A DNA stretch of 64,000 bases from Gouania willdenowi (taxonomy: Eukaryota): assembly GCF_900634775.1 (NCBI RefSeq), contig NC_041064.1:1444717-1508716 (forward strand), in the 5' to 3' direction. A program made the position numbers and the translations under genes. Of this stretch, positions 3,441-57,804 are shown piece after piece. The notes under the pieces were generated by a model. The model ran no database searches and had not been told where the DNA came from. It was given only the letters and a program-made list of their open reading frames with translations. Numbering within the stretch: the first letter of the stretch is position 1; each line of letters starts with the position of its first letter.

Positions 3441-3613
3441 ATGAGCACACCTGATGAAGCTGAGCTCTGCTATCCACACCTGGGAAACTCCTCGTGCAGG
3501 AGGATCATGCGCTCTCACTCAGTGTCTGTGCTCATTTCCATCATCCTGTCCTCCATCTCTGTGCTCACTGTGACCCTCAACCTGCTGGTCATCATCTCTA
3601 TCTCACACTTCAA
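3441..3613 (+). CDS. TAAR-like GPCR (class III-like), coding exon 1 (N-terminus and TM1)
   Basis: ORF 'MSTPDEAELCYPHLGNSSCRRIMRSHSVSVLISIILSSISVLTVTLNLLVIISISHF', paralogous to the N-terminus of the minus-strand gene at 57804. GT donor at 3614, phase 2. Confidence 0.7.
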
Positions 3614-3750
3614 GTAATGACATGTTCTGTTGTTTAATGAACTGTTGTTACATTGTTGAATGTTTCTGTGTTTGACTCCTGCTGTTATCTGCTTTGATCA
3701 GAACTGTCGTATAATATAATGATCAGTGTGTTGCTCTCTAACTCCTGCAG

Positions 3751-4561
3751 GAAGCTGCACACTCCCACCAACTTCCTCCTCCTCTCTCTCGCTCTGTCAG
3801 ATTTCTCTGTGGGATTTGTTTGGATTTTTCAGATCCTGCTCTTAGACGGCTGCTGGTATTTCAGTGATGGCTGGTGTGTCTTTAATGCATTCTTAACTTC
3901 TATTTCAACTGCTGCTTCAGTAGGAACTGTTGTGCTGATATCAGTTGATCGTTATGTGGCTGTTTGTGATCCAATGCACTATTCTACCAAAGTTACTCCA
4001 AACACAGCAAAGATGAGTGTTGTCTTATGTTGGTTTTGTTCTGTGGTCTGTTACACTACAATGCTCAAAGACAATATTGAACATCCAGGTGGGTTTAATA
4101 CCTGTGTAGGAGAGTGTGTAGTTTATTTACCTCCTGTTGCAGGAATTGTGAGTCTCCTTCTGAAATTCCTCATTCCAGTGAGTATCATAGTGGTCTTGTA
4201 TGTGAGAGTGTTTGCAGTGGCTGTGTCTCAGGCCCGGGCCATGCGCTCTCATGTTACAGTGGTGACACTTCATGGATCACTGAAGGTTAACAGATCAGAG
4301 CTGAAAGCAGCCAGAGCTCTGGGTGTAGTGGTTGTTGTGTCTATAATGTGTTTATCTCCACTTTATATTGCTACACTTTCAGCAGGGTTTGCAGGGTTAA
4401 AGGCATCATCTTATGTTGTTTTTTCATGTGTGTTTTTTATCAACTCCTTACTAAACCCTGTGATCTATGCATTTCTGTATCCTTGGTTCAGGAAATGTGT
4501 GAAATGTATTTTTTCTCTTCAGATTCTGAAGTCTGGTTCCAGTGAGGCCAACATACTGTAA
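3751..4561 (+). CDS. TAAR-like GPCR, coding exon 2 (TM2-TM7, stop at 4559-4561)
   Basis: Acceptor 'ctcctgcag' ends at 3750. Encodes 'KLHTPTNFLLLSLALSDF...SVDRYVAVCDPMHY...NPVIYAFLYPWFRK': DRY motif plus the TAAR fingerprint NPxIYxxFYxWF. No Asp3.32, as in teleost class III TAARs. Confidence 0.75.
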
Positions 4562-4578
4562 AGAGAGAGAGAGAGAGA
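4561..4578. repeat. (GA)n microsatellite immediately after the TAAR stop codon
   Basis: Sequence 'aaagagagagagagagagac'. Confidence 0.8.
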
Positions 4579-5329
4579 CTGCTGATGTGTAATTGTATCA
4601 CACTGTGCTGTTGATGTCTGAAAATCTTCTTCTCAAACTGTGATGATTGTAGAGAGCAGCTGCTCACATGCAAAGTTTGTGTTGATGATATTTGGGAGTT
4701 GCCCTTGAAATAAAATGTGGATGATCTGCACACTAATGATGATTTGATCCAATGATTGGGATAAGTGGTGAGAAATACTTTGAGGTGAGGAAACAAATGA
4801 ATGTTATTATGTAGTGATGAAACCAAATCAGGGTCTTGACATGAACTCAGGCGTTTAACTTTAACTTTACAAGCAGGATAAATTGATGATCTTTAAATGA
4901 AAAATCCTCAGACAAATGTGCACAAACACTTTAAGGCCTGAACCTCACTGCATTATTCCTTTCATAACAGTAAAAACAATCAGAATAGGAGAGTTACATG
5001 TAACACTGTCTCTGTGTGCAGCATCACTGCCTGAAATCTAATCTACAGATGTGCCAAATGTGATAAAACATGATGTTTTATAACATTTGAAAAAGGTCAA
5101 AAAACCCTGTATCTTATTTTCAAAGAAAACCGACAGAGAGGCAAAAATTAAAAACTGGTCGTAGACGAGCTTTACTTAGATGGCCAACTTTTTAGGAATT
5201 CGAACATCATCACCTGACTCTACTAAGAAAAAAAAAACAAAAACAGGTGAGTCAACATTCAAAGGATAATTCTCCACTCATGTTGAAGCTAAGGTAGCAC
5301 TATTTTAAAGGTAAAATAAATGTATGTGC

Positions 5330-5406
5330 TCTATGTGTGTGTATGTGTATGTATAAGTATATGCATATATATATGCATACACATACACACATACACACAT
5401 ACACAT

Positions 5407-5502
<96 letters not shown>

Positions 5503-5512
5503 GAAATAAAAC
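5330..5512. repeat. Compound microsatellite (TG/CA)n-(CATA)n-(AT)n
   Basis: Direct reading. About 90 bp of pure (AT)n at 5416-5500, flanked by (CA)n and (GTAT)n. Confidence 0.9.
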
Positions 5513-6989
5513 AATAATAATTAGAAAAAAAATAAAAAGAATTAAAAAGTGAAAAAAAATGTCTATATACGTAAGTGGATGTGTGTGTATGTATGTATGT
5601 GTAGGGAACCAAACCACATCAAGCCTAAAGACCCTCTTCCTAACAGGAATTAACAAAGGAGCCTGTTTCTTTATCACAAACTGTTTTTTATTACAAAATA
5701 ACTGCCCCAGTAACTTTGAGGTGCATAGCTAACCCCACTATGCGGCCTTTTGAACCCAATAACGTAGCCGAAAAGACTGGCCCAACACTTTGAAGAGTTC
5801 AGTATGAACTCTTTTTACGACTCCACACGGGGGAAGAACATCCGTCTTCTCCCTCCTTTACAAACAGATACCTTTGGGATGCTGTAAGATCACAGAACTG
5901 TCCCACTGACCCCTGACCCCCTGTGGTGAGCTGTCACAGAAGGACACTTTCCAGGCCTTCTCTGAGATGTGTCCCAGTGAAAAAGGAGAACAAACAAATT
6001 GTATTATGTTTGAAAAGTTACAAACAAAAACATTATTGGAATGGTTTCTGCAGAAATTGAAATTGCAAATATTGTCTGTCCTATTCCACTCTTTTCAGAT
6101 AATTTTGTACCCACAGAATGCTATTTTAAATGTTTCATCATTTAAAAAGTGCTTAAAATACCAGAAAACATCACAAAAGTTAGTTTAAGGTATCTACTGC
6201 AACCATATAGTACAGAAGAGGCATCACATGATTTTTTACATTTATGTTTACGAGTAATCACAAGTAAAATTCATTAACCGGTTCCTAAAGTAATACTAGG
6301 CTATTTTCCAGTCGTGTCTGGTATCAAAATGTTTCATAATACATGATATGATTTGATGTTGAAAAGATGTTTTGAAATATGTGGAATTAATTATCAGGCA
6401 TTTTTCTATGTTTAGGAATTCCCTCTGTTGTCTGTCATTCCACTTTACACACACACCCCAGACACACCCACAGGCAGTCAGCTGAGATGTTGGCAACTTT
6501 AAACCAATCAACAAAGCCTTTCCTCTTGGGAGGCAAGTCTCAAAGACAATCTTTTAAAAGGAAGAAAGCCGCTCCAAACTTTAGTTTTGGGACGCTGGTG
6601 ATTCATACTCAACGCGTTTCCCTTCCCCATCTTTTCATTTATTTTATTTTATTTTTAGTTGAAACAGTTTTTGGAACAACAGCTTGCTTGGTTCGGACGA
6701 ATCCAGCATCTAGTGACATGCATAACAGCCGAAAGAAGCCCGGCTCGCGACCCACTGTGGTATGCCACGAGCCACTCTCTAACCCAGCTGTGAAGGCCAG
6801 AACCGCTTGGATCGGCTGAAGGGGCTATACACGTCCCGCTGCATTTCTACAATACAGAACCTCCAGGTCCAACCCTGACATCATCTTCAAGGTACCTGAA
6901 CGAACTTGCATCAGCAAACTTGATCCACTATAGTTCACATACATACTTCTATAACTGCACACATACCTACACGCACATGTTCCACACAG

Positions 6990-7250
6990 TTCATCTCATT
7001 CATGTTTGTTCGTTCTCCCCGTCTGTCTTCTGCCCTTTGTTTTATGAGCTCTCTTTATGATTTTATTCTTCGATTTCATGATCTTATTATTTGAATATGT
7101 ATCCTGCATTGCCCTGTGATGGACTGGCGCCCTGTCCAGGGTGTACCCCCGCCAAGCGCCCTATGAGAGCCAGAAATTGGCACCGGCAGACCCCCGCGAC
7201 CCTGTTAAACGGGAATAAGCGGGTATGAAAATGGATGGATGGATGTATCC
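6990..7250 (+). mobile_element. SINE 3' portion, same family as 52800-53095
   Basis: Shares '...ttctccccgt...ccctgt(g/a)atggactggcgccc...cccgccaagcgccctatgagagccagaaattggcaccggcagacccccgcgaccctg...' with the 52800-53095 copy. Confidence 0.45.
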
Positions 7251-7949
7251 TGCATTTTTATTCAATACTTAGTAGATTAGCATTCACCTAGAATAGTGGT
7301 TTCACTTTATTACATATAATCCTCACTTTTATTAGCCGAGAAATGCATTTTATCATGATTTAATTATCCCATTTCAATTGATATTTTGACTGTGTTAATT
7401 GTTGAATTTTGAATAAAGGCTAAACGTAATCTTTGATTCCTCTGATTCATTAAAGCTGTGATTATGGTGTAGATTTGCTGTTAGAATTCACTTTTCCCTG
7501 GTTTCAAATTAATGGGTTTAGTCTAAAAACTTAGACATAATTCTCCTGTTAACAGGAGTGGCACGCCGCAAAAGTTGAAGTAATATTAATAATCATAATT
7601 AATATTCTTAGTTATATAACCTATTATTAACTCATCCTCCTACATATGTATGTATGCTATATATTTGCACAGATGTTGGTAAACACGTATAGGCGCGTAC
7701 ACTCTCACAGGACACTCTCTACCCCCATGTCAACACTTTACTCTCCAACCCCCCCCAACACTTCATATAACCACCTCTTGCTTGTCTTACTCTTTTTATA
7801 GTGTTTGTTGTTGTTGTAGTGATATCGCATGATAAGTATTTCTCCTCTTTTTTTCTTGCATCCAAGCTTTCTATGACACAGCTGTGCACCAATGCTCAGA
7901 CTCAGGGTTATGCTCACATCTGTATGGACTAAACACCACTACTCTCCAT

Positions 7950-10100
7950 GTCTCACTTTACAGTAACATTCTGGAATGTGCGTGGCATTCGCTCGCAGGC
8001 TAAAAAGATTAAGATATTTAATTATGTATCGAGATTAAATGCAGATGTCCTCTTTTAATAAACTCACTGACTTAAATCAGAAGAAAAATCTCTGACAGAC
8101 TCAAATTTAGATATATAGATAGTTTTAGATATATAATTCGTGTTACAATTCCAGACAAAGAGGAGTCTTGATTCTTTTCAACAAAAGGTTGCTCTTTAAC
8201 ATAATCAACTCCACCATAGACCCAGAGCGTAGATATATTATTATCAAAGTGGTAATCTATAATAAATGTTTCATAATTCTAAACCTCTATGCCCCCAATA
8301 ATGACGACCCTGAATTCATCCATAAAGTTTTTTCGGAGCTATCAGACCTTTCTGCTGACTCATCATTAATCATCGGAGGTGACTTCAATCTGACACTCAA
8401 CACATCATTAGACAGATCCAGTAAGTGCCCAAATACAAAACCATCCCGATCTGCTAAAGTATTAATGAATTACATGGATGATCATGGAATAGGAGACGTA
8501 TGGAGACTGAACAACTCAACTAAAAAAAGAATACACCTTCTTCTCCCCTGTGCATAAATCCTTCTCCCGAATTGATTTCTTTCTCTCAAATAATTCCATC
8601 GTACATAAGATTTCCTCTCAAAAAATCCTATAATCATTAGCAATCATGCGCCGATATCCCTCACCCTGAAGTGTGACTTTAATTAGAAATTATCCTCTCT
8701 ATGGCGCTTTAATACTTCATTACTTAATAACTGTGAATTTGGAAAAATGATAAGAAAAGAATGGGAGGACTTTCTATGAACAAACGACTCCCCGGAAGTG
8801 TCACCGTCCTTACTCTGGGAAACTGGCAAGGCTGTCATCAGAGGGAAGATTATATCATACATGCAGAAAAAGCATTCGATAGAGTCAACTGGTCATTCCT
8901 CCTAACTGTCCTTGGCAAATTTGGCTTTGGAGAATCATTCATACAATGGATCTCCACCCTCTACACTAAACCTAAGGCCTTAGTAACCACAAACAAAATA
9001 ACATCCCAAAGCTTCTCACTGCAGAGGGGAACCAGACAAGGTTGTCCACTCTCACCTTTGCTTTTTGCAATATTTGTTGAACCTCTCGCAGCAGTTGTAC
9101 GTCAGAACTCTGTTATTAAAGGAATCCACTCATCCATCTCAGAACACAAAATTAATCTTTATGCGGATGATATTTTACTTTATTTAGAAGAACCCCAATC
9201 CTCATTAGAAGAATTATTTAAACTAATAAACAGCTTCTCTAAATTATCAGACTATTCCATTAACTGGTCAAAATCATCAATCCTTCCTTTAACAAAAAAA
9301 TCATGGAACCCAGTAAGCCATAACCCACAATACCCCTCCCCCACAAATACAATTAAATATCTAGGCTTAAATATATCACCAAACCTAAATGAATTAATTA
9401 AACTGAACCTGGATCCACTGTTGGATAAAGTCACAGAAGATCTGCGGAGATGGAACAATCTCCACATCTCACTCCTTGGCAGAATAGCCTCAGTTAAAAT
9501 GAAAATCTTACCTAAAATAAACTATCTGTTCTCTATGATCCACTGAAACCACCAACACAATGGTTCAAAAGATTAGATTCTGCAATTACAAAATTCTATG
9601 CTAGGAATAAAAAACCTAAAATAAGCCTTTCAACCCTTCAAAACAATAAAAGCGAGGGTGGGTTGGAAGCTCCTAATTTCATGCATTATTACCTAGCAAA
9701 CCAAATTCTATATTTAACAGAATGGCTAAAACCAAAAGAATACCACAACACCTGACTAGAAATAGAACAGTTAGACTGTAAACATATTAAACTCTCTGAT
9801 CTCCCTTTTATCTCTGCGACCCTCAAACATCATAACTGCTTTAAAAACCCACTGATTGCCTCCACCCTGACTGCGTGGTGGAAAGCCCTGGACATTACAA
9901 ATGTTCAGTTAAAAACTAGCATCCTGTCTCCAAGCCGGCACATCCCTGACTTTGGAAATAGAAAAACACTGCTCTATCTAAAAACATGGGAAGAGAGCAG
10001 AATTATCCATCTCCAAGACCTCTTTGGAATTGGAAAGATAAAAAATCCTAAACATAAATCAATGGCAAAATCTCCTCATATTTTTTATTATTTCCAGTCA
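7950..10100 (+). mobile_element. L1/Tx1-like LINE, degraded (APE endonuclease plus reverse transcriptase)
   Basis: 'VTFWNVRGIRSQAKKIKIFNYVSRLNADVLF' at 7958. EN ORF 8168-8557 ('LNLYAPNNDDPEFI...IIGGDFNLTLN'). RT ORF 8761-9546 ('RQGCPLSPLLFAIFVEPLA...LYADDILLY'). Stops and frameshifts lie between the pieces. Confidence 0.65.
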
Positions 10101-10677
10101 TCTCCGTCCTGATGTGGGACCAACACTGACCTTTGTATTTTCACTTCATGTTCTAATCACCATCATTTATGTGTGTTTTCTTGTTGTTTGTCTGATGTTT
10201 TTTATTATTCAATGTATTTTTCTCTTATTTTATGCAGTTTTGTTGTCGTTTTTGACCTGGTGTTCCAGGCTGTGGCCCCCAGACTCTGGAATGACCTTCA
10301 CCAGTTTCTCAGGGAGCTCAACTGTGTGGTCACGTTAAGAAACTGTTGAAGACTTCACTTTTCAGAAAAGCTTTTAGTTAAATGGAATTAATTAATTATC
10401 CTTTTATGATGTTGTTCCTGTTGTTTTATTTTCTCCTTTGTTCTGTACAGCACTTTGTGATTTTATCTGCAAAAAGCACTTTATAAATAAATTACTTACT
10501 TATTTACTTACTTGGTGGGGTCAGAGGGGCCGTAGGCGCAAAATAGCAACTGCACTTTTGTCAGTCAGCCCCAGGGCAGCTGTGGCTACATTGTAGCTTA
10601 CCACCACCGGTATGACTGTTGTGAGTAAATTGGTTTCTGTGCACACTTTGTGTCTTTGAAGAAAGTGCTATATAAAT

Positions 10678-10683
10678 CAAAGC

Positions 10684-10757
<74 letters not shown>
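10678..10757. repeat. (AAT)n microsatellite
   Basis: About 26 uninterrupted 'aat' units. The preceding 'aagtgctatataaatcaaagc' resembles a teleost SINE tail. Confidence 0.9.
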
Positions 10758-10758
<1 letters not shown>

Positions 10759-11009
10759 CACATTGAATCCTAATTTGCAAAAAGGTTTAAAGGCACAAAG
10801 GTTTATTCAGTGTTGGGTTCAACAGTTTGGTGAAAGTAACAAATCTGTAGCAGACATGGTGTGAAATGTAGAGGTTTGCTGTAGCGCCACCTTGAGGGCC
10901 ATTGGCCTGTTTTTGCTGCTTAGAAGACAAAGAAATAAATAACTATTAACTTTAGTTCTGTTTATATTGCTGATCATTTGTGAAGCTCAAATCATGAGGG
11001 TGAAACTTT

Positions 11010-11455: not shown

Positions 11456-11492
<37 letters not shown>

Positions 11493-11784: not shown

Positions 11785-11910
11785 ATGTTGGTTTTTGAGA
11801 ACTGCTCCGTGTTTCTGGAGCTAAGGAACTTGTCCCTCAGCGAGAAGAAGAAGCTGAGATCAGCGGTGACGGAGAACGGAGGAAGCATCACCTTCATCAT
11901 CACAGCACAG
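11785..11910 (+). CDS. parp4: PARP4 (vault PARP) exon 1, BRCT domain start
   Basis: 'MLVFENCSVFLELRNLSLSEKKKLRSAVTENGGSITFIITAQ' aligns with my recollection of the human PARP4 N-terminus, from memory and not database-checked. Donor 'cag|gtacag'. Confidence 0.75.
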
Positions 11911-11929: not shown

Positions 11930-12181
11930 AGATCTGGTCCTGTCAAAGTGGTGGTCTCGTGTCTCCATCAGTGGTCTCTGGTGGTCTCGTGTCTCCATCA
12001 GTGGTCTCTGGTGGTCTAGTGTCTCCTACAGTGGTCTCTGGTGGTCTAGTGTCTCCTACAGTGGTCTCTGGTGGTCTAGTGTCTCCTACAGTGGTCTCTG
12101 GTGGTCTAGTGTCTCCTACAGTGGTCTCTGGTGGTCTAGTGTCCCCTACAGTGGTCTCTGATGGTCTCATGTGTCCTACAG
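11930..12181. repeat. 30-bp minisatellite (~8 units 'gtggtctctggtggtct(a/c)gtgtctcc(t/a)aca')
   Basis: Direct reading. Every unit ends in 'cctacag'. The last unit supplies the exon 2 acceptor. Confidence 0.9.
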
Positions 12182-12401
12182 TGTTCTTTGGTCGTGGTCT
12201 CTGACGTGTCCCAGCTCAGTTCCACGCGGCTACGCAGCGTCCAGAGGCACCAGGTGCCCGTGGTGAGCCCGGAGTACCTGCACCGCTGTTTGGAGAGCGG
12301 ACAGCTGCTCTCTGTGGACGGGTTCAAGTTGGACACGTCCTCGCCTCACTCAGTTGTTCCTGCTCCGCCTCCACCCAGACAGGCTCCGCCCACAGAACAA
12401 G
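12182..12401 (+). CDS. parp4: PARP4 exon 2, rest of BRCT
   Basis: 'CSLVVVSDVSQLSSTRLRSVQRHQVPVVSPEYLHRCLESGQLLSVDGFKLD...' matches the remembered human 'CTHIILDNADVLSQYQLNSIQ' (recalled, not checked). Phase 0 after exon 1. Donor 'caag|gtgaga'. Confidence 0.7.
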
Positions 12402-31099: not shown

Positions 31100-31925
31100 C
31101 TCGTCCCGAGGGCTGCTGACGTCTTTAGTTCAGACCATCAGGGAATTATTTGTGTACTTTAGTCAATCTACACATAATAGAATACAGTATACAAATGAAA
31201 TAAAACATCAGGACTTATTCATTTTTGCTCTGAACCCTGTCATCTTGTCAAGTTTGGCAACACGGCGTGCTTGGAGCATGTTGGAGTTAGCACTACCGAG
31301 CTGTCCATGCTAGCTGCTACATGTTTAGCATTGAGGTGCTATCTGCTGCATGTTTAGCATTGAGGTGATAGCTGGTACATGTTTAGCATTGAGGTGCTAG
31401 CTGCTACATGTTTAGCATTGAGGTGCTAGCTGCTACATGTTTAGCATTGAGGTGCTAGCTGCTACATGTTTAGCATTGAGGTGCTATCTGCTACAAGTTT
31501 AGCATTGAGGTGTTAGCTGCTACATGTTTAGCATTGAGGTGCTAGCTGCGCCATATTTAGCATTGAGGTGCTAGCTGCTACATATTTAGCATTGAGGTGC
31601 TAGCTGCTACATATTTAGCATTGAGGTGCTTGCGGAGGCTGCAAAGCCTCGGTCGTTGACAAACTTGTACTTGCTTGATTTGCACACAACGAGGCCTGTG
31701 TTTTCCATCCAATGTTTTTATAAGCCAAAATTAACGCAAACAAAGCTGAGAAGCTTGGTAGTCTTCTGTCTGTGCATCAGTATAATGGGTATACCGGGAA
31801 CTCTTGAAATGAAAAAGGTTCTGCGCTGTTAAGAGTGTTAAAAAAAATTGATTAACAGCATTATATTTTTAGCGCGTTATTTTTTCCTGTAATTAATTAA
31901 TCACAATTAACGTGTTAAAGTGACA
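31100..31925 (-). mobile_element. Repeat element carrying a 33-bp minisatellite (copy A; inverted relative to copy B at 37770-38700)
   Basis: 31300-31640 holds ~10 units of 'gctagctgctacatgtttagcattgaggt'. 31640-31925 is the reverse complement of 37770-38080 ('...ctgtaattaattaat(c/t)a(c/t)aattaacgtgttaaag...'). Confidence 0.6.
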
Positions 31926-37769: not shown

Positions 37770-38700
37770 CTAGGGCTGGGCCTTTAACACGTTAATTATA
37801 ATTAATTAATTACAGAAAATTAACGTACTAAACAAAAAAACGCATTTTTTTCCACTCCAAACAGAGCAGAACTTTTCTTATTGCACGAGTTCCCGGTATA
37901 CCCATAATACTGATGCACAGACCACAACACAAGAAACAGGAGAACCAGAGGAGAAGTCGTTGCTGTGTTTTGTGGGCGTTAATTTTATTTTAAATAAAAA
38001 CACTGGATGGAAAACTAAAGCCCATCTGTGTGAAAATTGTTAGAGAAAGAGTTCGTGAATCAGAGCTCTGTTAGCCTCAGCTAGCACCTCAATGCTAAAC
38101 ATGTTGCAGCTTGCACCTCAATGCTAAACATGTAGCAGCTCGCACCTCAAAGCTAAATATTTAGCCGCTAGCAGCTAGCACCTTAATGTTAAACATGAAG
38201 CAGCCAGCACCTCAATGCTAAAGATGTAGCAACTAGCACCTCAATGCTAAACATGTAGCAACTAGCACCTCAATGCGAAATATATAGCAGCTAGCACCTC
38301 AAAGCTAAATATTTAGCAGCTAGTAGCTCAATGCTAACCACGTTGCAGCTAGCACCTCAATGTTAAACATTTAGCAGCTAGCACCTCAATGCTAACATGT
38401 AGCAGCTAACACCTCAAGGCTAACATGTTGCAGCTAACACCTCAGTGCTAACATGTAGCAGCTAGCACCTCAATGCTAACATGTTGCAGCTAACACCTCA
38501 ATGCTAACATGTTGCAGCTAACACCTCAGTGCTAACATGTAGCAGCTAGTACCTCAATGCTAACATGTAGCAGCTAGCAGGGACAATGGTCCTAGTGGAG
38601 CAGACAGTGTCTCCAATCTACACTGACACTCAGACAGGGTTCAGAACCAATAATAAATCCATGAGTAACAAATGAACAAAGTCAGTGATAAATGATTGTA
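37770..38700 (+). mobile_element. Repeat element carrying the 33-bp minisatellite (copy B, inverted relative to 31100-31925)
   Basis: Starts 'tagggctgggcctttaacacgttaatt'. 38080-38590 holds ~15 units of 'agctagcacctcaatgctaaacatgtagc'. Confidence 0.6.
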
Positions 38701-43566: not shown

Positions 43567-44844
43567 AGTCAATTCTCTCCTTTTCTCCATGAACCCAAGA
43601 TGAGGAGTCACAGTCTGTCAATACGTAAACCTTCTGAAGATTTGAGATTGTCAGATCAATGTCGGGAAGATGAGAGTGAGTCTTTGGGCAGCTCTATAAG
43701 GGATCCTGGTGAAGACTACATTGCTCCTCCTCTTCTAATGGCTGAAAGCTTGGCAGTCTTTGAAGCACCAGAGGAGGACGTGGACATGGATTATGATGAT
43801 ACCACTTTACTTTTTCCTACAGAGGATCATAGCAACTCTCACCTTGAAGTATCTAATGCAATCTCCACTACTGAATCTTCCATTCGCCGTACGAGGAGGA
43901 AGCTAAAAGATCTAGGAGTTTTACATTCTGCTGCTCCACCTGCATCTCCACCTCGTCTTCTCCCACAGTCATCGAGCTGTAACATTCTACAGAAATGTTC
44001 GTTTGATAGTTCAGTGACTTCATCTATAGATCAAGATTTTGCTGATCCACCTTCACCCACCTGGGTCTCCATTGGATCAGGCAAAGCTTTTGGAGGCATT
44101 CTGCCTCCACCTTGTCCTCCTCTTGGAGGTGCTCCTCCACCACCTCCACCCACTGGGTTCTCCTTTGGATCTGGCAGAGGTTTTGGAAGCGCTCTGGCTC
44201 CACCTTGTCCTCCTTTTGGAAGTGCTCTGGCTCCACCTTGTTTTCCTTTTGGAGGTGCTCCTCTACCACCTCCACCCACCGGGTTCTCCTTTGGATCTGG
44301 TGAAGGTTTTGGAAGCGCTCTGCCTCTATCTACACCTGGTCTTCTTTTTGGAGCCACTCCTCCACCACCTCCACCTACCGGGTTCTCCTTTGGATCTGGT
44401 GAAGGTTTTGGAAGCGCTCTGCCTCTATCTACACCTGGTCTTCTTTTTGGAGCCACTCCTCCACCACTTCCACCTACCGGGTTCTCCTTTGGATCTGGTG
44501 AAGGTTTTGGAAGCGCTCTGCCTCTATCTACACCTGGTCTTCTTTTTGGAGCCACTCCTCCACCACTTCCACCTACCAGTAAGAGTTTGCCTCAGCGTTT
44601 AAGATCTGTCTCTGAATTCTTCCGTCAAAGCAATGCATACCAACCGATGTCGGTAAATAGTCCATTAACAAAGACAAGGTTGAGCTGCAAACAAGTTGAT
44701 CAAAAAGAAACCGTTGTGGAGCTCCAGGGTTCAGAATCACCTAAAGCAATACAGTTCGACGGTGTTGAGAAGACAGCGTTCATCAGAGCCAGAAGAAATT
44801 GTCTAAAGACGTCCTTTAGAGGTTTGAGGGCCAAACAGGAGTGC
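43567..44844 (+). CDS. parp4: PARP4 large exon 30, Pro/Gly/Phe-rich repeat region (the 3' boundary could instead be 44861)
   Basis: Acceptor 'tttctgtttctttag'. A 426-codon open frame in phase with exon 29. Contains ~3 near-identical 108-nt repeats encoding 'TGFSFGSGEGFGSALPLSTPGLLFGATPPPLPP'. Candidate donors 'tgc|gtgagg' at 44845 and 'at|gtaagc' at 44862. Confidence 0.55.
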
Positions 44845-46295
44845 GTGAGGAACGTCGTTATGTAAGCCTTTCATCCTTCACACCCACCAATAAAACAACA
44901 TGATGTTCATGTTCTCTCCTCTCAGGAGCAGATGTTGCACTTATGATAATAAAACAAACATCTTTAGATGATCAAACAGCAGTGCTCTCACACAACTGTG
45001 AAACTTTCTTTTTAAAAGGTCACCTCCAAACCAGCTCACGTATTATTAAATTAAGGTTTATATGTTAACTTTATGACCTGTCCACTGCAGACAACAACAG
45101 GATGGTTTTAGTGGAAAATAGCAGCATTTAGAATAGAATAGAATATACCTTTATTGATCCTTGAAAGGGAAATTCAGCAGCAACATGACAAAAAGGAGCA
45201 GACAGTAAGAATCTAAAATAAATACCAACATAGATAATAGTGCACGTAGGACAGAAATGATAATGAAACATTTGTTCTAAACAAAACAACAAATAAATCA
45301 GCCGATTGGAATCTTTGTTCTTTGAGTGAATCACTTTTTGTTAAATTATAAAATACATTAAAGGTGTTTATGGGGTATTTTGGTGCAAACTTTTGAATCT
45401 AAACAAAGAGCTAACATGCTAATGCTACTTTTAGAAGAGCTAACCAGTTAGGAATTACATTATTAAAAGTTTGTCTTCACTCAGTTTTTATTCTCTGATA
45501 CGTTCAGAATTTAAAGACTTTGTTTAAAGCAAAATCTTAACCACATAAACTGCTGAAGGTTCAGTTTTGGTGTCGTTCCAGGGACGTTTCTGCTGAGTCA
45601 GCATCAGCCGCCTCCGAGCTCAAATGGACGAAGATTTTCCAAATGCAGAATTCAGTGAGAGCCTTTTTCTTTCTTTTTATTTACGAGTTGTGCACAAAAT
45701 CTTCACTCCTCTTATCACTGCAAAGATGCTTCTGTCAACACATTTCTCACAGTACGCTGTAAACGCTCTATAAACGTTAACGTAAACATTAAACGTCCTG
45801 GATAAGAAGCCTAAATCATATCAACTCTAGCTGGGTTTCCATCACAGATTTTCGCAAAAACAAAAGTTATATTTCTTAATGTCGACAAGTATAAGGAGCT
45901 GGAGATGCGTAAATCCCGTGAAATCTCATCCCGTGAGACTTTGCTGCAGAAAGACGAACGTTCTAAACCTTAGAACACTCGGTATTCCTTTGTTGTTTCA
46001 CGTCTAATGTGGCAGTAATCATTTAATAATAATAAGTATAATGTCTGGGTCTCCTCTTCTGTCCACACGTACCACGTCATGTTTTTTCAGGAGTGATCAT
46101 GTGACCAGGTACATCCTGTCCTGTGACGTACATGGTCACATGACCACTTCTCTCTGAGAAAACATGTTTTATATTTTATCATCTTTTATTAAATGACTTC
46201 TGTGTGAAGCACTTGGATCTACATTTGAATTTGTGAGGTCATGGTGGGATGTGGATGGATGGATCTGCTGATGTGTCATTGTGGTCCTTTTGAAG

Positions 46296-48139: not shown

Positions 48140-49445
48140 ATTCCTTTTTAAAGGGGACATATGATGCTAAATCCACTTTTTTAGCCCTTAAATGCATTTT
48201 GTTGTATATTTAGAGTGTTTAGAAGTACAGAAAAAATCAAATTAGTCTCTTCAGATGCTCCGTAGATATCTTTATATTCTGTTTTGCTCATATTTTTCAA
48301 TCTGTTTCGATTTTTCGATTCTCTATTACGTTTTTTGAACAATAACGTCAGCAGAACTGCTAAATTAGTTCATCAACTCCAGGTCCAACACTTCGAGCAA
48401 TCCGCCATTTTTATTTCAGGCTTTTATTTTGTAGTCCAAGCTCCAGGATGCAGAAGTTACGAGAGGATAAGTCAAAATGTTGGGTTGTTGGATGTAGTAA
48501 CCCACACGCTTCATTACACCGTCTCCCAGCATCAGAACCTTTTCAAAGTGTCTGGTTGAGTTTTATTTTTTATAGAAATGTACCCACATCTGTGGATAAG
48601 GTCATTTTTGTGTGTGTGAAGCACTTCAATGATGACTGCTTCATCAACCTCCACCAGTATAAAGAAGGATTTACAGAAAGACTTTGTCTGATTGAGGGTT
48701 CAATTCCTTCTATCTTTGGAGACGATGAACAGAGCACTTCGGTAAGCTGTAAATAACGCTAAAAAGTGATGATAAGACGTCCCTGTCATTGTTTTGTTAG
48801 CATTAGCATTAGCACCGTCTTCATATGTTAGCGCTGTGTGCTCGTTTTAGATCCTTGATGATATGGCCTACGTGATTTAATTTAAGTCTAAAGTTTTCAT
48901 TAGTCATTTCATTTTGACGTTTTTGTCTTTGAAAAGACTGTATTAAAATGCATTTCGTGACGTTAGCTTGGCGCTAGCGTTAGCTCGGTGCTTGTGTTAG
49001 CTCACTTGTTAGGGTTCTGCAGGTTCATCATCTTCATTTTCATCTCGCTCCACTGGGTCAGACTCTGGCTGGAACATGTAAGGCTGGATGGACAAGTCTA
49101 ACGTTGTTGACATTGTGTAAATAACGTGTGAATAAAAAGTTTATGCTCCGCTACATAGCCGTATCTCTACTATCAAACTACAAAAATGGCCGAGCAGGGT
49201 GGAGTTGAACCGAGTGTCACCTGAAGAGGGGGCGGGGTATGGAGTGTCTCATTTGCATTTAAAGAGACAGCACCAAAACGAGTTGCTCTCAGAAGCACAT
49301 CAGAAAAGGGGTAGAAAAGGGGTGGAGCTATAATAATGAGGAATTCAGACCCAAACATTGCAGTAACACTTTATATAGACACAACTGTATGATTTATATG
49401 TAAAAAGGAAGGATTTAAAACCATGATATGTCCCCTTTAAAACAG
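48140..49445 (+). mobile_element. TIR-bounded element carrying a THAP-domain ORF (P-element-like non-autonomous transposon candidate)
   Basis: 48150 'ttaaaggggacatatgatgctaaatcc' versus the reverse complement of 49405-49440, 'ttaaaggggacatatcatggttttaaatcc'. Internal ORF 48448-48756 has C-x2-C...H and a terminal 'SIPSIF', which match the THAP C2CH and AVPTIF pattern. Confidence 0.5.
48448..48738 (+). CDS. THAP zinc-finger domain ORF (transposase- or THAP9-like N-terminus), first exon only; followed by 'gtaagc'
   Basis: 'KCWVVGCSNPHASLHRLPASEPFQSVWLSFIFYRNVPTSVDKVIFVCVKHFNDDCFINLHQYKEGFTERLCLIEGSIPSIF'. Confidence 0.5.
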
Positions 49446-50274
49446 ATTAAAAGTGAATTTTTTAAACTGACCTTGTAAACACTTCCTAATAATTCTTATT
49501 ATTAAAGTTTAATCTGAATTAAGTGGCTGGTTTATTCTGATTTGAATTCTGAATTAAATGATTTTGTCTTATTCCGCTTTAAGTTAATTCCGGTCGTTCT
49601 GAACATGCGCGACTTGCCGCAATTACACGCTGGTGACGACACAATCCAAGATGGCCGCCTGGTCTAGAGCTGATACTATTTATTTAATAAGAACCTTAAA
49701 AGACATGGATATAATGTAGAGTGGATGGACAGAAGAATAAACACAAGGACAGACTTATTACACATGGACATCGGCTTCACTAATGACACGTGGATCATTA
49801 TAAAGTCATTTTTCACTCAACGTCTTGTATATTGGAGGTAGAACAGATGTTCTATTAACAGCTGGCTTTGGTTGACCAAAGTACGTCTTCTATCATCTTC
49901 TCCTGCTCAGCTGAAATGTTATTGTCAAGCTGCTGCTTCAAAACTACTTTCAAAATAAAAGTGACTACAGTTCTTATCATGTGGTTTTCTATGTTGTACC
50001 TGAAAAGAAAAGGTTTGTTGTGTTTTTCCCAATATTAGTGATATGTCACGTTCTCCTGTATAATCAGAACCTTTCCAACCTAAAGAGGAATTTAATAAAG
50101 GTGAATAAACCTTTTCATGTAAACACGAACCAGAACACTTTCATTTTGAATAATGTAATTAGGAATAACTAATTCTGAATTAAAAAACATCATGTAACCA
50201 TTAATATAACCAGAGACACACAAACAGGTGTTGATTCCATTGTTCTCCATTCTCCAGCTGTTCCTGTGCAAAGA

Positions 50275-50306
<32 letters not shown>

Positions 50307-50339
50307 GTAGGACCTGCAGTAATATTGGGACTGTTATGG

Positions 50340-51080
50340 ATGCGCCCCCCCACAAAAAAAAAAAATTCATTTAATATTTTTCTATTGTTTTATTTAATAG
50401 ATGTATTTTTGTGACGCACACTGTTTATATTAGAGGTGATTATTGTTTATTGTTTGAACACAGTAGAGCTTTAATCACACCTAAAATATAAGACCCACAG
50501 ATTTACTTAACAAAATAAGTTGATTTATGACACATGTCACAAAATACAGATGCTTAAAAAGTGACCTGAAATTCCTGTAAAATGAAAATAGATTTTTTTT
50601 TAATTATTATTAAAACAAAAGACAATCTTAAACAACTATATTTCTATACTTTCACTTTGTGAATTTAGTTCAACTAAAATGCATTAAAAATAAATACAAA
50701 TCTGAGATCAAACATGATTAAAAACTAATTCTGAAAAAGTGTATTTTGGGGTCACCAGAGATTATTGATATGGAACAGGGGTCACGATCCAAAAAAGGTT
50801 GGGAGCCATTGGACTAAATACTGTTTATTTAGTTCAAGTCTGACCCATCACTGTGGGATGCTGAGCAAGTCCCTGTAGTTTGGCACCCCACTGGTACCCC
50901 TCAGGGAAAATGGGTAAAAATGCAGGGAAGAATTTTATACGGTGATCAATAATGGTTACATAATTATTGTTATTATTATTATAGTCAAACAAAGGGGGGA
51001 CTTGGATTCAGAAATAAGAGAAAGGGGGACTAGAGCCAAAATAGTTCAACAAACACTTGTAGGGGATCAAAATCTGGGTC
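50340..51080. mobile_element. Second copy of the interspersed repeat seen at 20500-21420
   Basis: Shared blocks listed under the 20500-21420 entry. Confidence 0.5.
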
Positions 51081-51094
51081 AGGGACCCCTACGT

Positions 51095-51420
51095 TTACAG
51101 TCTGTAGTTTAACAGTCTGTGGTTTAACAGTCTGTGGTTTAACAGTCTGTAGTTTAACAGTCTGTAGTTTAACAGTCTGTGGTTTAACAGTCTGTGGTTC
51201 AACAGTCTGTGGTTCAACAGTCTGTAGTTTAACAGTCTGTGGTTTAACAGTCTGTAGTTTAACAGTCTGTGGTTCAACAGTCTGTAGTTTAACAGTCTGT
51301 GGTTCAACAGTCTGTAGTTTAACAGTCTGTGGTTTAACAGTCTGTAGTTTAACAGTCTGTGGTTCAACAGTCTGTAGTTTAACAGTCTGTGGTTTAACAG
51401 TCTGTAGTTTAACAGTCTGT
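51095..51420. repeat. 15-bp minisatellite 'aacagtctgt(a/g)gttt' x ~22
   Basis: Direct reading. About 100 bp upstream of the last parp4 exon. Confidence 0.9.
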
Positions 51421-51516
51421 ATGGTCAGTAGACGTAGTAAAGAGTCAAAGGTTTAAAGGTTGATTAACTGCGTGTGGTTGTTTTATTCTGAAGTGTAAAA
51501 GGCTTTTATTTTGTAG

Positions 51517-51727
51517 CAGGGTGGAGAGGTGGGAGGTGGTGAAGAAGGCAGCAGACTGGGTGCGCTGGGCGGACTGGCAGTATCCCAGTATCTACAGCCG
51601 GCTGGAGTTGGCTCTGAGCTGGGAGGCGTTCACTCGTCAGTTGCTGGGATACGAGGACGTCCCTCCGTTCTCTGAGCTGCGTGGCCTCCACCTGCAGTTG
51701 GTCCCGCCTCCTCTCCTGGTTCACTGA
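51517..51727 (+). CDS. parp4: PARP4 terminal coding exon (MVP-interacting C-terminus); stop at 51725-51727
   Basis: '(S)RVERWEVVKKAADWVRWADWQYPSIYSRLELALSWEAFTRQLLGYEDVPPFSELRGLHLQLVPPPLLVH*' versus the remembered human 'EWVRRTEGQYPSICPRLELGNDWDSATKQLLG' (recalled, not checked). NAGNAG acceptor, so the start is 51517 or 51520. Confidence 0.7.
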
Positions 51728-51841
51728 GCCGACCCGTGAGAAACAGAACCTGCCTTGATTTACGCTTCAGTTTCACCTTGTTCCTCATTCCAACCTTTAT
51801 CAGAACAATATGTGTCATCAGGCCTGATGACACATATTGAT

Positions 51842-52320
51842 TATTAAACATAGGGCTGGGCGACATAGACAAAAACACATATCTCAGTATATTTCCTCCA
51901 AACAGCGATAAACGATATAAATGTTGATCATTTTAAATCAAATGACGTTCAACCAGAAAAACAGTTCAGGGTTAAATTTGTTGATGCAAACACAGGAAGA
52001 TTAAAAAACAGGAGTTTTGGTTGATTAATTACAGATAACTTGATGTGGGATGTCAAGTGTCTATGTTGTAAGATAAAGACATTTTTGATTGTACATTTTC
52101 AATATTAAATATTAACAGGTGGCCATATGGGCCAGTCAAGGTTTCTGTCAAATAAGCATCATATTTAGATATTTAGGTCCAGAACCTTAGAAATGTGTTT
52201 TTAATTCTAATAATGTGACTTTTGGTTGGCTAGGAACTGAAAAAACCTGTTTTTGGGTGGACGCCATTTTGAATTGTTCATTATGGCGACCCCTTTGAGA
52301 ATGATCAAAATAAGATGTAA

Positions 52321-52359
<39 letters not shown>

Positions 52360-52412
52360 ATAGGTAATATTGGAATTTTCTATATCACCATGATAGCCCA
52401 GCCCTATTTAAA
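51842..52412. mobile_element. hAT-like MITE (TIR 'TAGGGCTGGGCGA')
   Basis: 51842 'tagggctgggcgacatagac' versus 52385-52412 'gatagcccagccctat' (inverted). Includes (TA)n at 52325-52360. Confidence 0.5.
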
Positions 52413-52499
52413 TATTAATACCAGACATTTGTCATCACAGGACATCCATCATTATCGAACCAACTTCACCCCAAAACATTTAGAGGAAGTTTTTTTCAG

Positions 52500-52660
52500 T
52501 GGTTAAGGAAGTGGGCTTGTAATCAGAGGGTCATTGGTTCTAATCTTTCTGCTCCGTCACTGTGGGACATTGATCACTTCCTTATATGAAGCTTAACCAT
52601 GGCTGCTCCTCAGGGAGGGGTTAAATGCAAAGAACTAATTTCGTGCGTGTACCCGAAAAT
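52500..52660 (+). mobile_element. tRNA-derived SINE (partial, same family as 2925-3145)
   Basis: 'ggttaaggaagtgggcttgtaatcagagggtcattggttctaatc...ctcagggaggggttaaatgcaaag'. Confidence 0.55.
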
Positions 52661-52799
52661 ATATAACAATAAAGTAAAGTCTTTTTATTCTATTCAAAAT
52701 CTGGTAATTTCGCACAATTGTGTGTTGACCCTTTGCATTACAATGTTATCAAAATATATTTCTCGCTAGTTTTATGGAAGTCTGGGTTTTATAGACGTA

Positions 52800-53095
52800 A
52801 AAAACAAACGACTGTGGGTAGTGGTTAGTACGTCTGCCTCACAGCAAGAAGGTTCTGGGTTCAAGCCCTGGGGTGGACACCTGGGTCCTTTCTGTGTGGA
52901 GTTTGCATGTTCTCCCCGTGCTGCGTGGGCTTCCTCCAGGTACTCCGGCCCATAGGAGTGAATGAGAGTGAGTGGTCTGTGTTGCCCTGTAATGGACTGG
53001 TGTACCCCCGCCCAGCGCCCAATGAGAGCCAGAGATTGACACCGGCAGACCCCCGCGACCCTGATCAGTGGGTCTGAAAATGAATGAATGAATGT
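52800..53095 (+). mobile_element. tRNA-derived SINE with a conserved teleost core
   Basis: tRNA-like head 'gtgggtagtggttagtacgtctgcctcacagcaagaaggttctgggttcaagccc', then 'gagtttgcatgttctccccgtgctgcgtgggcttcctccaggtactccgg'. Confidence 0.65.
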
Positions 53096-55689
53096 CTGAC
53101 TGTAAAAGAGTCCAAACCAACCACACGAGACGTGACTACAGATGAACGTATGAATGTTGCAGTAGCTTTTATCATGGCCACATTGGAGGGGATGTGGGTG
53201 GGTGAACTGGTTCATTGTGTTTATTGCTAATCTAAATGTTTGCACTTAAATTCTTTATGTTTCATTGTAAAGATGATGTAATGCTTTGGGCCCTTATTCA
53301 CCTATTGCAGCTTTAATGGAATTTAAAAAAATAAAATGAGTATAATTGACTTTTTCTGTAGATTTTGTCATTTTTGTCCAAAGCGAGGGCTAAATATAGA
53401 ACATTGTGGTTTGTGGATCGGATTCACACAGACAAACACAGAAACAGGTTGTGTAGCTTCACCACAAATCTTCTGGTACTTGGTCTCTCACAGGGTTGAG
53501 GGTGTAGAGTTGCAGATTAAAGTTACTAAACTATAGGAAAGTCTTCACTTGACCATAGTTTTTCACCACAGATTTCATAGGACCTTAAGGTCACTCTGAA
53601 TAAAAAGGGAAGAAGCATTGTAAGAACAGGTCACGGTTTACAGAGTTCATTCTCTAATCTCACCACCTCCAGAATGACTTTTATGATATGGAAAAACCAA
53701 AGCCCAGGATCAGCACCAGACTTGCATCATTTATACTATGGTCGCTCAAGGTTGAGGCAGGTTCCCATAGTCTTTATTATCCTGTGCAGAGGAATCGTGT
53801 TCCATGTGCAGTCAGTACTGGTTGTGTCCTCCAGCCGCTCAGTCTGATCCTTTCTACCAGACTCACCACTGCCCTGGCTTAGGCCTGGACATCATCTGTC
53901 CGACCCAACGCAGTAAATCACTTTTCTTTTTACACTCACCTTTTGCTTATTTGTAACAACACACAGCCACACCCCCCAGCGGCAGGGCGGCCAATTGCAT
54001 AGTGAGGCGTTCCCTTCACCTAAGGGCCAGCCTCCGTGTCACGTTGACGGCATACCCCCGTGTAGGTCCTGACGCTGAACCTTAAACCAGGCTTTACTGA
54101 CACGCCTGCATGCCTAACAATTAAGTGTTTACATGTCACGCAGACGGCGCTACATCGTGAAGGTCACCTGATCACTATAGCTTCACTCACACCACACCTG
54201 CCACTACACCTAACTACTGACATTAGGTAAGTTTAGTGAAACTTAGACAGGTATACGTGTGTTAGACTGGTGTGTATGAATTTAGAAACGATCCACCCCC
54301 CATACTTACCTGAAGCTGCTGTGCTGCAGTACGTCATTGACCGTTACTTGCTGAAGGTCCAGACAACCCTCCAACAAAGGGAACCAGTCAAGTTCCTCCT
54401 CCAGATCCTCCCAAAGTTCCCACCAACACGGTGACAGAGAACAATTATGAACTGGTAAGTAAAGCTAACTAAACTAAGCTAATCCACCAACACACAGACT
54501 AGGCTCAGACTCAGAGCTAATGCTAACCACTCCATTTAAGGAATAGACCAATTAAAAAGTACACGTCATCAGCCTGATCTGGTGTAATTATAATAAATCA
54601 GAGATATTTATCAATCGTAGCTTTATGTACAGTAACTCATTATCAGATATAAAATAAACTTGATTCAGTAACAGTAAAAATTAGTTATTAATGCTTTTCA
54701 TGTGTTTTTTTTGGCACTGTCTACAGTTATTTTTATTGTATGTGTTAGTGATAAATTGTGTGAAGTTTCAGATCGATAAGACCAGATTCAGCAGAGATAT
54801 CATATTACATATTTACTGTTTCAGGGATTAAAATGGCGTTCTCGACCAGAGTTGAAGTCTAGCCACGCCCACACTGTGTGAGATATGGAAATACGATTAA
54901 GACCTATTGACTTGTCATCAGTTCTTCAGTGATGTGCACAGGTTTCAGGCCTCTGTGATGATTCCTCTTGGAGCTAGAAGCTAAAATGATGAATCTATTA
55001 AATTGGATTAAAAGACTTCTGTGTGTTTTCAAATATGGTTTCAAGAGACTTTTTTCTGTGTTTCTTAAGGATCCTATAAGTCTGTACATTTTGATCCATC
55101 CTGCAAATATGCTATAGTTTATTTCATGCACTGTTCATTGAATGTTCTGTACTAACCTCTGTTTTTTATTTATTTATGTTTTTATAAACAAAAACACACT
55201 TGTTTTAGAAAGTTTACAGAAATTCCAGAAAATCATAAATATAGTTTGATTAAATTTATATTAGTGCTTTGTGAACAATGCAATCAAAATATTTTTATTC
55301 ATATTACACATTATGTTATCACTCAGTAATGGAAATAATAAACAATATTTAACTGTTTAAGATTGTTTATTGTTCACTTGTGTCAAATAATGTTTCAACA
55401 TTTATTTAGATTAATTGAGATTAATAAATTACAAAGTCACTAATAAATTAGATTGACACCACTATAATATAAACTAATATCTTACCTATTATAGATCATA
55501 ATAGTGCTATTTTGTAGTAAAAGTTACATATTACATTTACTTGTGTTGCTGTAATTTAGTCAATTTTTAGTTTTCATAAAAAAAATTATAATTTTACTTC
55601 AGTTAATTTTTTTTGGAAGTTTTCTCTACATTTTAATTTGCATCTGTCACTGAGTAAAAATGTTGTTTATTATTGTCATATTTAGTGGT

Positions 55690-55830
55690 GTATGTATGTG
55701 TTGAATGCTACGTGGCTGTTTGGGATGTGATGCACTATCAAACTAAAGTCATGGCTTACAGAGCAAAGATGAGCATTGTTCAATCACATGTGAAGACAGC
55801 TGCTGCTTTACCTGCTCAGCTTCACATTTA
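55690..55830 (+). pseudogene. TAAR-like pseudogene fragment (TM3/IL2 region only)
   Basis: 'CVECYVAVWDVMHYQTKVMAYRAKMSIV' resembles 'SVDRYVAVCDPMHYSTKVTPNTAKMSVV' of the gene at 3751-4561. No flanking TM coding sequence. Confidence 0.45.
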
Positions 55831-56715
55831 CCATTTTTATTTGAATTCAACCCAAAATGTTAAGATAATGTTAGGTTTTTAATCATTAAAGGAGGAAAAG
55901 CTTTACATCTGTAAATATTTGATCTTCAGGATTTATTACAAACTGTCCTTTGTCTTTTCCCTGTTAATTCCATTGTTAAATAAGATGAAAACTCTGCTGG
56001 ACAAGGTTTCATGAAGCAACGTTTATTTAGAGACCAATGTGAGAAAAAGCTCAGAGCTACAAACAGCGTTACAGTGCGCAGGCTGATAGAACATTTACAT
56101 AAAGACTGAAATACAATAATAATCTCCAAATATTGTCAAAAACACAGAGATGTCAGTTATTATAGGGACATGAAGACAATCAACTCATTAAACACAATCA
56201 GGTCTAATAAAGAGACAGTGATATTATATTTAACATAGATATTTAACCCTCGGACTAAACAGGGTGAAACAAAGAGTCCTTTAGGCAGGACTTACAGCTG
56301 CCAAAATGATGGTCGCCACAAGGTGGAAGCCCCTCACTCTCTGTCTCACTGACAGTGGGTCATGACATGTATTGACATTGCTTACCTAGAGCTCTCCACG
56401 GCACAGACACATGGTGCAAAGGAGAGCACCACCAATATGTGGGACAGTGCAATCAAAAGTCATCTTTTCTTGAAGTTACATTTTTGTTTGAGTGCAGATT
56501 GCGTTTCATCATGTAGTGTTCTTGTTGCCATGGACTTGTGTATGTTAGTGTTTTTTGTTGTTTGAAAATTAATTTATAAAAAAAAGAAAATTGATGAAAA
56601 AGAAAAACAAAATGTTAGGATTAGGGTTAGAATTAAACAATCATTGGTTTAAACTTTACTGTACTGATAAATGCTGGAAATTGTGTTATTGTTCAAAGCA
56701 TTAGGGGCTGCTTTG

Positions 56716-57550
56716 TCAGCGTTTCCGCTCTCTGTGCAGCAGGTTAATATCACTGGAGCCAGGCTTCATTATCTGAAAGGTACCAATGAGCTTGATGGAC
56801 TTTCTGAACCAGGGGTAAAACAGTGCATAGATCAGAGGGTTGAAAAAGGAGTTCAGGTAAAACAGACACATCACAAAAGCCAAAGTGGAAGCATTTAAAA
56901 CAGAGTCTGCTCCAGTCATAGAAACACAAAAATATGGACAGGTGCACAGGAGAAAAACCACAATGACAACGCTGATTGTGCTGAAAGCTTTAAGCTCAGA
57001 TTTCTTTGTGGTGAATTGGGACTCGTGTGCAGGTCTCACAGATGCAACATGAGAACGCATAGAATGAGCATGAGACAAAGCCACCACAAACACCCTCAGA
57101 GACATCAGTACGATGACAATAACAGGTCCAATAAATGACAGGATAACATCTACAATGCTACCAACATAACTGACAACTACTACACACTCCCCAAGGCACG
57201 TGCTGTACTGGCCTGGTTGTTCCAGGTTATCTTTAAAAAGGTAAAATTGATAGAAAACAGAAATGATCCAGCACAGAGAAACACATACTTTCACTCTGTT
57301 TGCTGTGACTTTAGTGGGATACTGCAGAGGTTCACACACTGCCACGTAGCGATCCACTGAGAGCAGAACCATTGTTCCTATTGAAGCTGAGGTGAAGATA
57401 TATTCCAAATAATAATACACAAAACACAACAGCGCCCCAAACAACCAACAACCATCAATAAGTGATATTTGGAAGATCATAAGGATGCCCACGAAGAAAT
57501 CTGAGATAGCCAGAGAGAGGAGGAGGAGGTTGGTGGGAGTGTGGAGCTTC
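56716..57550 (-). CDS. TAAR-like GPCR gene 2, coding exon 2 (TM2-TM7, stop at 56716-56718)
   Basis: 'KLHTPTNLLLLSLAISDFFVG...SVDRYVAVCEPLQYPTKVT...NPLIYALFYPWFRKSIK'. The minus-strand acceptor is 'cacttttcag'. Confidence 0.75.
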
Positions 57551-57634
57551 CTGAAAAGTGAGAGATAAAGAAAAGTCAGATCAGATTTTATGAAAACAGA
57601 ACCTCCTAAACACTGTGAAAGAATATTTAAATAC

Positions 57635-57804
57635 CTGAAGTGTGAGATGGAGATGATGACCAGCAGGTTGAGGTTCACAGTCATCACAGAGATGGAGGAG
57701 AGGGTGATATAAATCAGCACAGAGACTGAGTGAGGACGCACGATCCTCCTGCACGATGAGTTAAGATTTGAAAAGCAGAACTCAGCGTCGTCAACGGTTG
57801 CCAT
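57635..57804 (-). CDS. TAAR-like GPCR gene 2, coding exon 1 (start codon at 57802-57804 on -)
   Basis: 'MATVDDAEFCFSNLNSSCRRIVRPHSVSVLIYITLSSISVMTVNLNLLVIISISHF'. Minus-strand donor 'cag|gtatttaaat'. The 84-nt intron (57551-57634) is stop-free and in frame. Confidence 0.7.

Follow-up and report, generated by a model that had tools for sequence, protein, structure and literature searches.

Trace amine-associated receptor genes on both sides of parp4 in the clingfish Gouania willdenowi and their probable place in a class III cluster

Trace amine-associated receptors (TAARs) are G protein-coupled receptors (GPCRs), and the members studied so far act as odorant receptors in olfactory sensory neurons. 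In the clingfish Gouania willdenowi, two TAAR genes stand on either side of parp4, which encodes the vault poly-ADP-ribose polymerase, and the locus raises the question of how an unrelated gene of the housekeeping type came to be bracketed by receptor genes, and to which branch of the family these receptors belong. The stretch analysed (64,000 nt of contig NC_041064.1, assembly GCF_900634775.1, positions 1,444,717 to 1,508,716; hereafter, the window) contains the genes designated T1 (3441–4561, + strand) and T2 (56716–57804, − strand). An initial annotation had described them as complete TAAR-like GPCR genes of class III and had offered two explanations for their arrangement, namely a TAAR cluster in which parp4 is embedded or the dispersal of TAAR copies. 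The present analysis indicates, with a probability of about 90%, that the window is part of a class III TAAR cluster adjoining parp4 on a 39-Mb chromosome of G. willdenowi, and that T1 and T2 each form an intact gene of two exons.

Structure and family identity of T1 and T2

Both genes comprise two coding exons (Table 1) with intact open reading frames (ORFs), and the spliced products, of 327 aa (T1) and 334 aa (T2), share 54% identity. These products coincide, letter for letter, with the G. willdenowi RefSeq proteins XP_028291864.1 ('trace amine-associated receptor 8a-like', T1) and XP_028291865.1 ('13c-like', T2), which validates the splice models; both genes are already present in the public annotation with exactly these coding sequences, and the limits proposed initially were correct to the base. 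The convergent orientation and the spacing of ~52 kb were recovered as well, the two stop codons lying 52.2 kb apart.

The single intron after the first transmembrane helix (TM1), which had been proposed from the junctions ISHFK/KLHTPTN in T1 and ISHFR/KLHTPTN in T2, has GT..AG borders in both genes. The splice divides the Lys or Arg codon following ISHF (AA/G in T1, AG/G in T2; phase 2 in both), and the exon junctions fall at F57/K58 of T1 and F56/R57 of T2. The T2 intron keeps the reading frame and is stop-free, so that a 362-aa ORF runs through it. Retention of this intron would put 28 extra residues into intracellular loop 1, and one UniProt model of a near-identical T2 paralogue translates through the equivalent intron.

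A Pfam search matched T1 and T2 to one family only, 7tm_1 (E = 1.7e-42 and 1.3e-42, respectively; profile positions 2–260 of 260). In the search against solved structures (PDB), the top 15 matches of T1 and T2 were all TAARs, with E-values to solved TAARs of 1e-56 to 1e-66; zebrafish TAAR13a–e gave the best scores (181–226 bits), mouse TAAR9, TAAR7f and TAAR1 scored 150–196 bits and lamprey TAAR348 114–132 bits. The best non-TAAR aminergic structures (alpha-1A, beta-1 and H2) reached 103–118 bits, and the best TAAR matches stand ~70–110 bits above any aminergic receptor. These scores support the assignment of both proteins to the TAARs and not to other aminergic GPCRs, as the initial annotation had it.

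The TM7 signature NSxxNPxx[YH]xxx[YF]xWF, which is said to go back to Lindemann et al. 2005, is present in both proteins (NSLLNPVIYAFLYPWF in T1 and NSFFNPLIYALFYPWF in T2). The C-terminal fingerprint NPxIYxxFYPWFRK, initially ascribed to both genes, was found in T2 (NPLIYALFYPWFRK), but not strictly in T1, which has NPVIYAFLYPWFRK, with Leu at the Phe of the pattern. The DRY motif is retained in both, as had been noted, together with NPxxY, the cysteines of TM3 and the second extracellular loop (ECL2) and an N-terminal N-glycosylation site.

The neighbourhood of parp4

The blenny Ophioblennius macclurei (OZ308445.1, ~36.57–36.60 Mb) has a TAAR array a few kb past parp4, as the clingfish does: in the interval 36,570,214–36,591,265, the first of at least seven TAAR genes, which lie within 20 kb and in mixed orientation, begins 3.1 kb beyond the parp4 stop codon, and this first TAAR is the closest relative of T2 at the locus (60% identity). 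In G. willdenowi, the same 38,978,045-bp chromosome carries T1, T2, six other RefSeq-annotated paralogues belonging to the 90% identity cluster of T2, and two paralogues resembling T1 (at 98% and 93% identity). Because of this blenny array and of the paralogues on the same chromosome, the locus appears to be a resident TAAR cluster adjacent to parp4 and common to at least clingfish and blenny; of the two options offered initially, the embedding of parp4 in a cluster is the one that the data support. The bracketing of parp4 would then have arisen only through growth or rearrangement of the TAAR array on both sides. No description of the adjacency of TAAR genes and parp4 was found in the literature, and likewise none of the TAARs of G. 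willdenowi.

Dispersal, either transposon-mediated or by retroposition, is an improbable route by which TAARs might have reached the flanks of parp4 in place of the growth of a resident cluster. It would agree with the distribution of the clingfish-only clade to which T1 belongs, scattered over at least eight chromosome-scale sequences and six scaffolds, with the transposon fragments flanking T1 (a GC-rich block at 1–3400 and a long interspersed nuclear element (LINE) at 8129–9543), and with the position of the nearest blenny relatives of T1 downstream, not upstream, of parp4. However, the family intron kept by both genes excludes their origin from retroposed spliced mRNA, and a search of both gene regions revealed no repeat shared by the flanks of T1 and T2, the common sequence being confined to the coding region and the adjoining intron ends. 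Together with the parp4–TAAR adjacency in the blenny and the close paralogues of both genes on the same chromosome, this leaves dispersal as the less supported of the two options for the T1–parp4–T2 locus.

There is little likelihood that T1, T2 or both are unexpressed or recently dead copies that look intact through recent duplication. Complete ORFs, canonical splice sites and the preservation of DRY, NPxxY, the cysteines, the N-glycosylation site and the TAAR signature speak against such a state, even though pseudogenes are frequent in TAAR families, a decayed copy is present 1 kb from T2, and T2 has several paralogues that are 95–99% identical. The loss of every known amine-contact acid from T1 could also be taken as a sign of decay, but its frame is undisrupted at 54% identity to T2 and 93–98% identity to its nearest paralogues.

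Class assignment and ligand-contact residues

Class III, in a scheme reportedly introduced by Hussain et al. 2009, unites zebrafish TAAR14–20 with neoteleost expansions, apart from classes I and II, and the same authors are said to characterise it by the absence of Asp3.32 and Trp7.40, the aminergic motif. A tree (neighbour-joining, Kimura distance, 200 bootstraps, class I root) was built for T1, T2, 21 database relatives and zebrafish, medaka and fugu references, the latter taken from Additional file 1 of Azzouzi et al. 2015 (PMC4415300) as machine-read PDF text with letter errors. T1 and T2 fell into a clade of 100% bootstrap with zebrafish TAAR14–20 and the spliced genes of medaka and fugu; inside it, a neoteleost subclade (89% bootstrap) takes in T1, T2 and the fugu and medaka spliced genes, and zebrafish TAAR12/13 (class II) and class I lie outside the clade of T1 and T2. 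Phylogenetic placement, which had been named as the check on the class III assignment, agrees with it, and the tree supports the membership of T1 and T2 in the neoteleost 'spliced' class III subfamilies.

The intron is in line with this placement. In cichlids, ~80% of the TAARs consist of two coding exons, between which an intron interrupts intracellular loop 1 around codon 55–57 at a Phe-Arg or Phe-Lys junction; two-exon TAARs make up class III family A, while zebrafish and mammalian TAARs are intronless (PMC4415300). Members of family A (A1–A4, A7) resemble T1 and T2 in having two coding exons and a short loop-1 intron near codon 57, and the spliced class III proteins of stickleback, tilapia, sea bass and grouper, which fall into the same tree clade, are 57–66% identical to T1 and T2. 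Blenny and tilapia relatives share the intron position, tblastn alignments of their exon 2 beginning at residue 56–58. The short intron was probably inherited from the ancestor of the spliced subfamily. The homologous cichlid intron was described as phase 0 (PMC4415300), in contrast to the phase 2 of T1 and T2, which alone fits both the GT..AG borders and the RefSeq proteins; the clingfish-only branch of T1 was not sampled in that study. As hallmarks of class III, the two features named initially stand in part: the intron is published for the spliced neoteleost subfamilies, but zebrafish class III genes lack it, and the loss of Asp3.32 is not general among the percomorph relatives sampled.

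Positions 3.32 and 5.42 were assigned by their distance from DRY and P5.50 and checked in alignments with TAAR13c/d. Both proteins have Cys instead of Trp at 7.40; at 3.32, T1 has Thr, so that its aminergic motif is lost, and T2 has Glu, with the Trp lost and the acid remaining. The initial statement that both genes lack Asp3.32 is literally true, and for T1 it means the absence of an acid, but it is misleading for T2, where Glu is kept. Asp3.32 occurs in 10 of the 13 close T2 paralogues sampled, including one 99% identical to it, and in 87 of 132 other percomorph relatives sampled (83 of these 87 also have Asp5.42); judging by these counts, loss of Asp3.32 and Trp7.40 is not diagnostic within the percomorph clade of T1 and T2.

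That T1 and T2 are class II receptors (TAAR13-like or TAAR8-like), and hence classical amine receptors, is very improbable: the RefSeq names, the top rank of zebrafish TAAR13a–e among solved structures and the acids of T2 at both 3.32 and 5.42, as in TAAR13c, are outweighed by Cys7.40 in both proteins, by the loop-1 intron, a mark of class III family A, and by the position of zebrafish TAAR13a/c and TAAR12 outside the 100% clade joining T1 and T2 with TAAR14–20 and the medaka and fugu spliced genes, and, as no class III structure is among the PDB matches listed (top 60 per search), TAAR13 is simply the nearest solved relative. The grouping with TAAR12/13 is refuted by the present neighbour-joining tree.

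Amines are bound by salt bridges to Asp3.32 and Asp5.42, and di-cations are detected by receptors that have both residues (Li et al. 2015, PMC4695389); in TAAR13c, Asp279(6.58) forms an external gating site (PMC4914996). T2 has Asp at 5.42 and another Asp that aligns with Asp279(6.58). Because of Glu3.32, Asp5.42 and this third acid, T2 may sense di-cationic amines of the diamine or polyamine type, like zebrafish receptors with two pocket aspartates. The same three acidic positions are shared by zebrafish TAAR13c and TAAR13d (cadaverine/diamine receptors; 9m2s, 9m0x), which differ from the clingfish genes in being class II and intronless and in having Asp3.32 and Trp7.40; T1 has none of the three acids. 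With Ser at 5.42 and no acid in the TM6/ECL3 segment, T1 can form neither of the known amine salt bridges, which makes a classical amine improbable as its ligand.

Neither gene shows the 'Asp5.42 present, Asp3.32 absent' pattern of zebrafish TAAR16c/e/f (non-classical amine receptors; PMC4695389), which belong to class III, as T1 and T2 do. T1 differs from them in having Ser5.42 and T2 in having Glu3.32 in addition, which brings it nearer to the two-acid 'di-cation' type; the pattern was found in ~17 of the 40 members of the clade of T1.

The nearest relatives of T1 form ~37 Gouania-only clusters (at 90% identity), 64–93% identical to T1, in a clade of 100% bootstrap that is sister to a Salarias gene. 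None of its 40 members has an acid at 3.32 or one aligned with Asp279 of TAAR13c, and 22 of the 40 (T1 and 21 others) have no acid at 5.42 either, whereas the sister blenny genes retain Asp3.32 and the Asp279-like acid. TAARs without both Asp3.32 and Asp5.42, as T1, are rare singletons in zebrafish (1 of 112, PMC4695389; TAAR19f) and in Siniperca chuatsi (2 of 68), in contrast to the majority that they form in the clingfish clade. In sequence terms, the clade is a lineage-specific expansion stripped of pocket charges. It is conceivable, if doubtful, that T1 belongs to a TAAR subfamily, specific to clingfish, that has departed from the detection of amines; its copies may owe their spread to some process besides tandem duplication.

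Several points weigh against the picture of a class III cluster of olfactory receptors beside parp4. T2 has the opposite orientation to the first blenny TAAR, which runs in the same direction as parp4, and the synteny comes from one other species. The stretches covered upstream of parp4, which reach 3.5 kb for Goodea and 0.6 kb for Dissostichus and contain no TAAR, are too short to be informative; the TAAR loci of tilapia and Menidia have no parp4 within 10 kb, which is uninformative too, because TAAR clusters are large. The tree is of the neighbour-joining type only, and the letter errors of its references could affect the placement. The olfactory expression and function of T1 and T2 are presumed from family membership, and no ligand is known for TAARs with Glu3.32 (PMC4695389), which makes the ligand class suggested for T2 a guess.

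parp4, the TAAR relic and the significance of the locus

The presence of parp4 between the two receptor genes, proposed initially, was confirmed by its domains and by collinear fish loci. Exons were mapped by tblastx against two fish loci, since the protein search gave PARP4 fragments only; the mapping revealed at least 28 conserved exon blocks at 11785–40300, collinear with parp4 in Dissostichus mawsoni and Goodea atripinnis. The gene also has a large exon at 43567–44862 and a last exon at 51512–51727. Translations of the exons contain, in order on the + strand, BRCT_2 (2e-10), PARP (4e-20), VIT (9e-34) and VWA_3 (3e-16) domains of Pfam. For the last exon, the counterpart is the end of the O. 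macclurei PARP4 gene (1870 aa); segment 51512–51679 is 68% identical to the end of this blenny gene, whose product has a recorded PARP4_MVP-ID match, while the hand-joined C-terminal exons gave no Pfam match and PARP4-specific Pfam families were not detected on the hand-joined parp4 exons.

Table 1. Coordinates of the TAAR genes, the TAAR relic and parp4 in the window
Feature	Position	Strand	Description
T1 coding exon 1	3441–3613	+	N-terminus, TM1 and start of intracellular loop 1; ATG at 3441; ends with ISHF and AA of the Lys codon; GTAATG donor
T1 intron	3614–3750	+	137 nt, GT..AG, phase 2; location of the class III family A intron (PMC4415300)
T1 coding exon 2	3751–4561	+	TM2–TM7 and C-terminus, including the stop codon; Thr107 = 3.32, Ser192 = 5.42, DRY, NSLLNPVIYAFLYPWF
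T2 coding exon 1	57804–57635	−	ATG at 57804; GT..AG border; spliced product identical to the RefSeq protein
T2 intron	57634–57551	−	84 nt, GT..AG, phase 2, in frame, stop-free
T2 coding exon 2	57550–56716	−	Includes the stop codon; Glu106 = 3.32, Asp191 = 5.42, DRY, NSFFNPLIYALFYPWF
TAAR relic	55695–55780	+	TM3 end plus intracellular loop 2, with DRY decayed to ECY
parp4 (vault poly-ADP-ribose polymerase)	11785–51727, ATG to stop	+	Pfam domains, PARP4-named database matches, collinearity with fish loci

The large exon has no Pfam match; it contains, at 44234–44577 (+), an in-frame tandem repeat of 99 nt (33 aa; 3.5 copies, 96% identity), the encoded motif being rich in Pro, Gly and Phe (PPPPPTGFSFGSGEGFGSALPLSTPGLLFGAT). 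Within a parp4 intron, at 48364–48753 (+), there is an ORF of 130 aa that has a THAP zinc-finger domain (Pfam E = 7e-9) and probably belongs to a transposon-derived sequence. The parp4 introns also harbour minisatellites at 11949–12192, 14457–14988, 18703–18908, 31308–31630, 38078–38579 and 51093–51421 (periods of 15–30 nt, 8–27 copies); those at 31308–31630 and 38078–38579 consist of 29-nt units that are mutually reverse complementary.

A TM3 remnant had been proposed at 55690–55830, between parp4 and T2. The fragment is TAAR-derived but shorter, the similarity being limited to the segment given in Table 1: a blastn search, restricted to the two TAAR gene regions, aligned it with nt 3939–4023 of T1 (73% over 85 nt, E = 2e-11), and a tblastn search of the window with the T1 protein gave 64% identity over 22 aa (E = 0.014). 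No further TAAR exon sequence was detectable around it, and it is a small remnant, not a recognisable pseudogene body. This 85-nt fragment is probably the decayed leftover of another TAAR copy between parp4 and T2.

Fragments of mobile elements lie around the two TAAR genes. The LINE sequence between T1 and parp4 (+ strand) encodes an endonuclease and a reverse transcriptase, and beyond T2 there are another reverse transcriptase and an RNase H of the gypsy type (61490–62859 and 58501–58944, both − strand). The block upstream of T1 has a GC content of 51%, versus ~39% elsewhere, and long multi-frame ORFs without a Pfam match.

T1 and T2 are annotated genes from a family that has been well described, and their loop-1 intron, TM7 signature and variable Asp3.32 are already known from publications on neoteleost class III TAARs, so the finding is confirmed but ordinary; some potential for novelty lies only in the acid-less, dispersed subfamily of T1, mostly outside the window. 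The parp4–TAAR adjacency could nevertheless act as a synteny anchor for a fast-evolving TAAR cluster, and the clade of T1 is a natural test set for the question of whether TAARs without the known amine-contact acids still detect amines. If the receptors of this clade are expressed and functional, they would represent TAARs specialised for a class of ligands other than classical amines.

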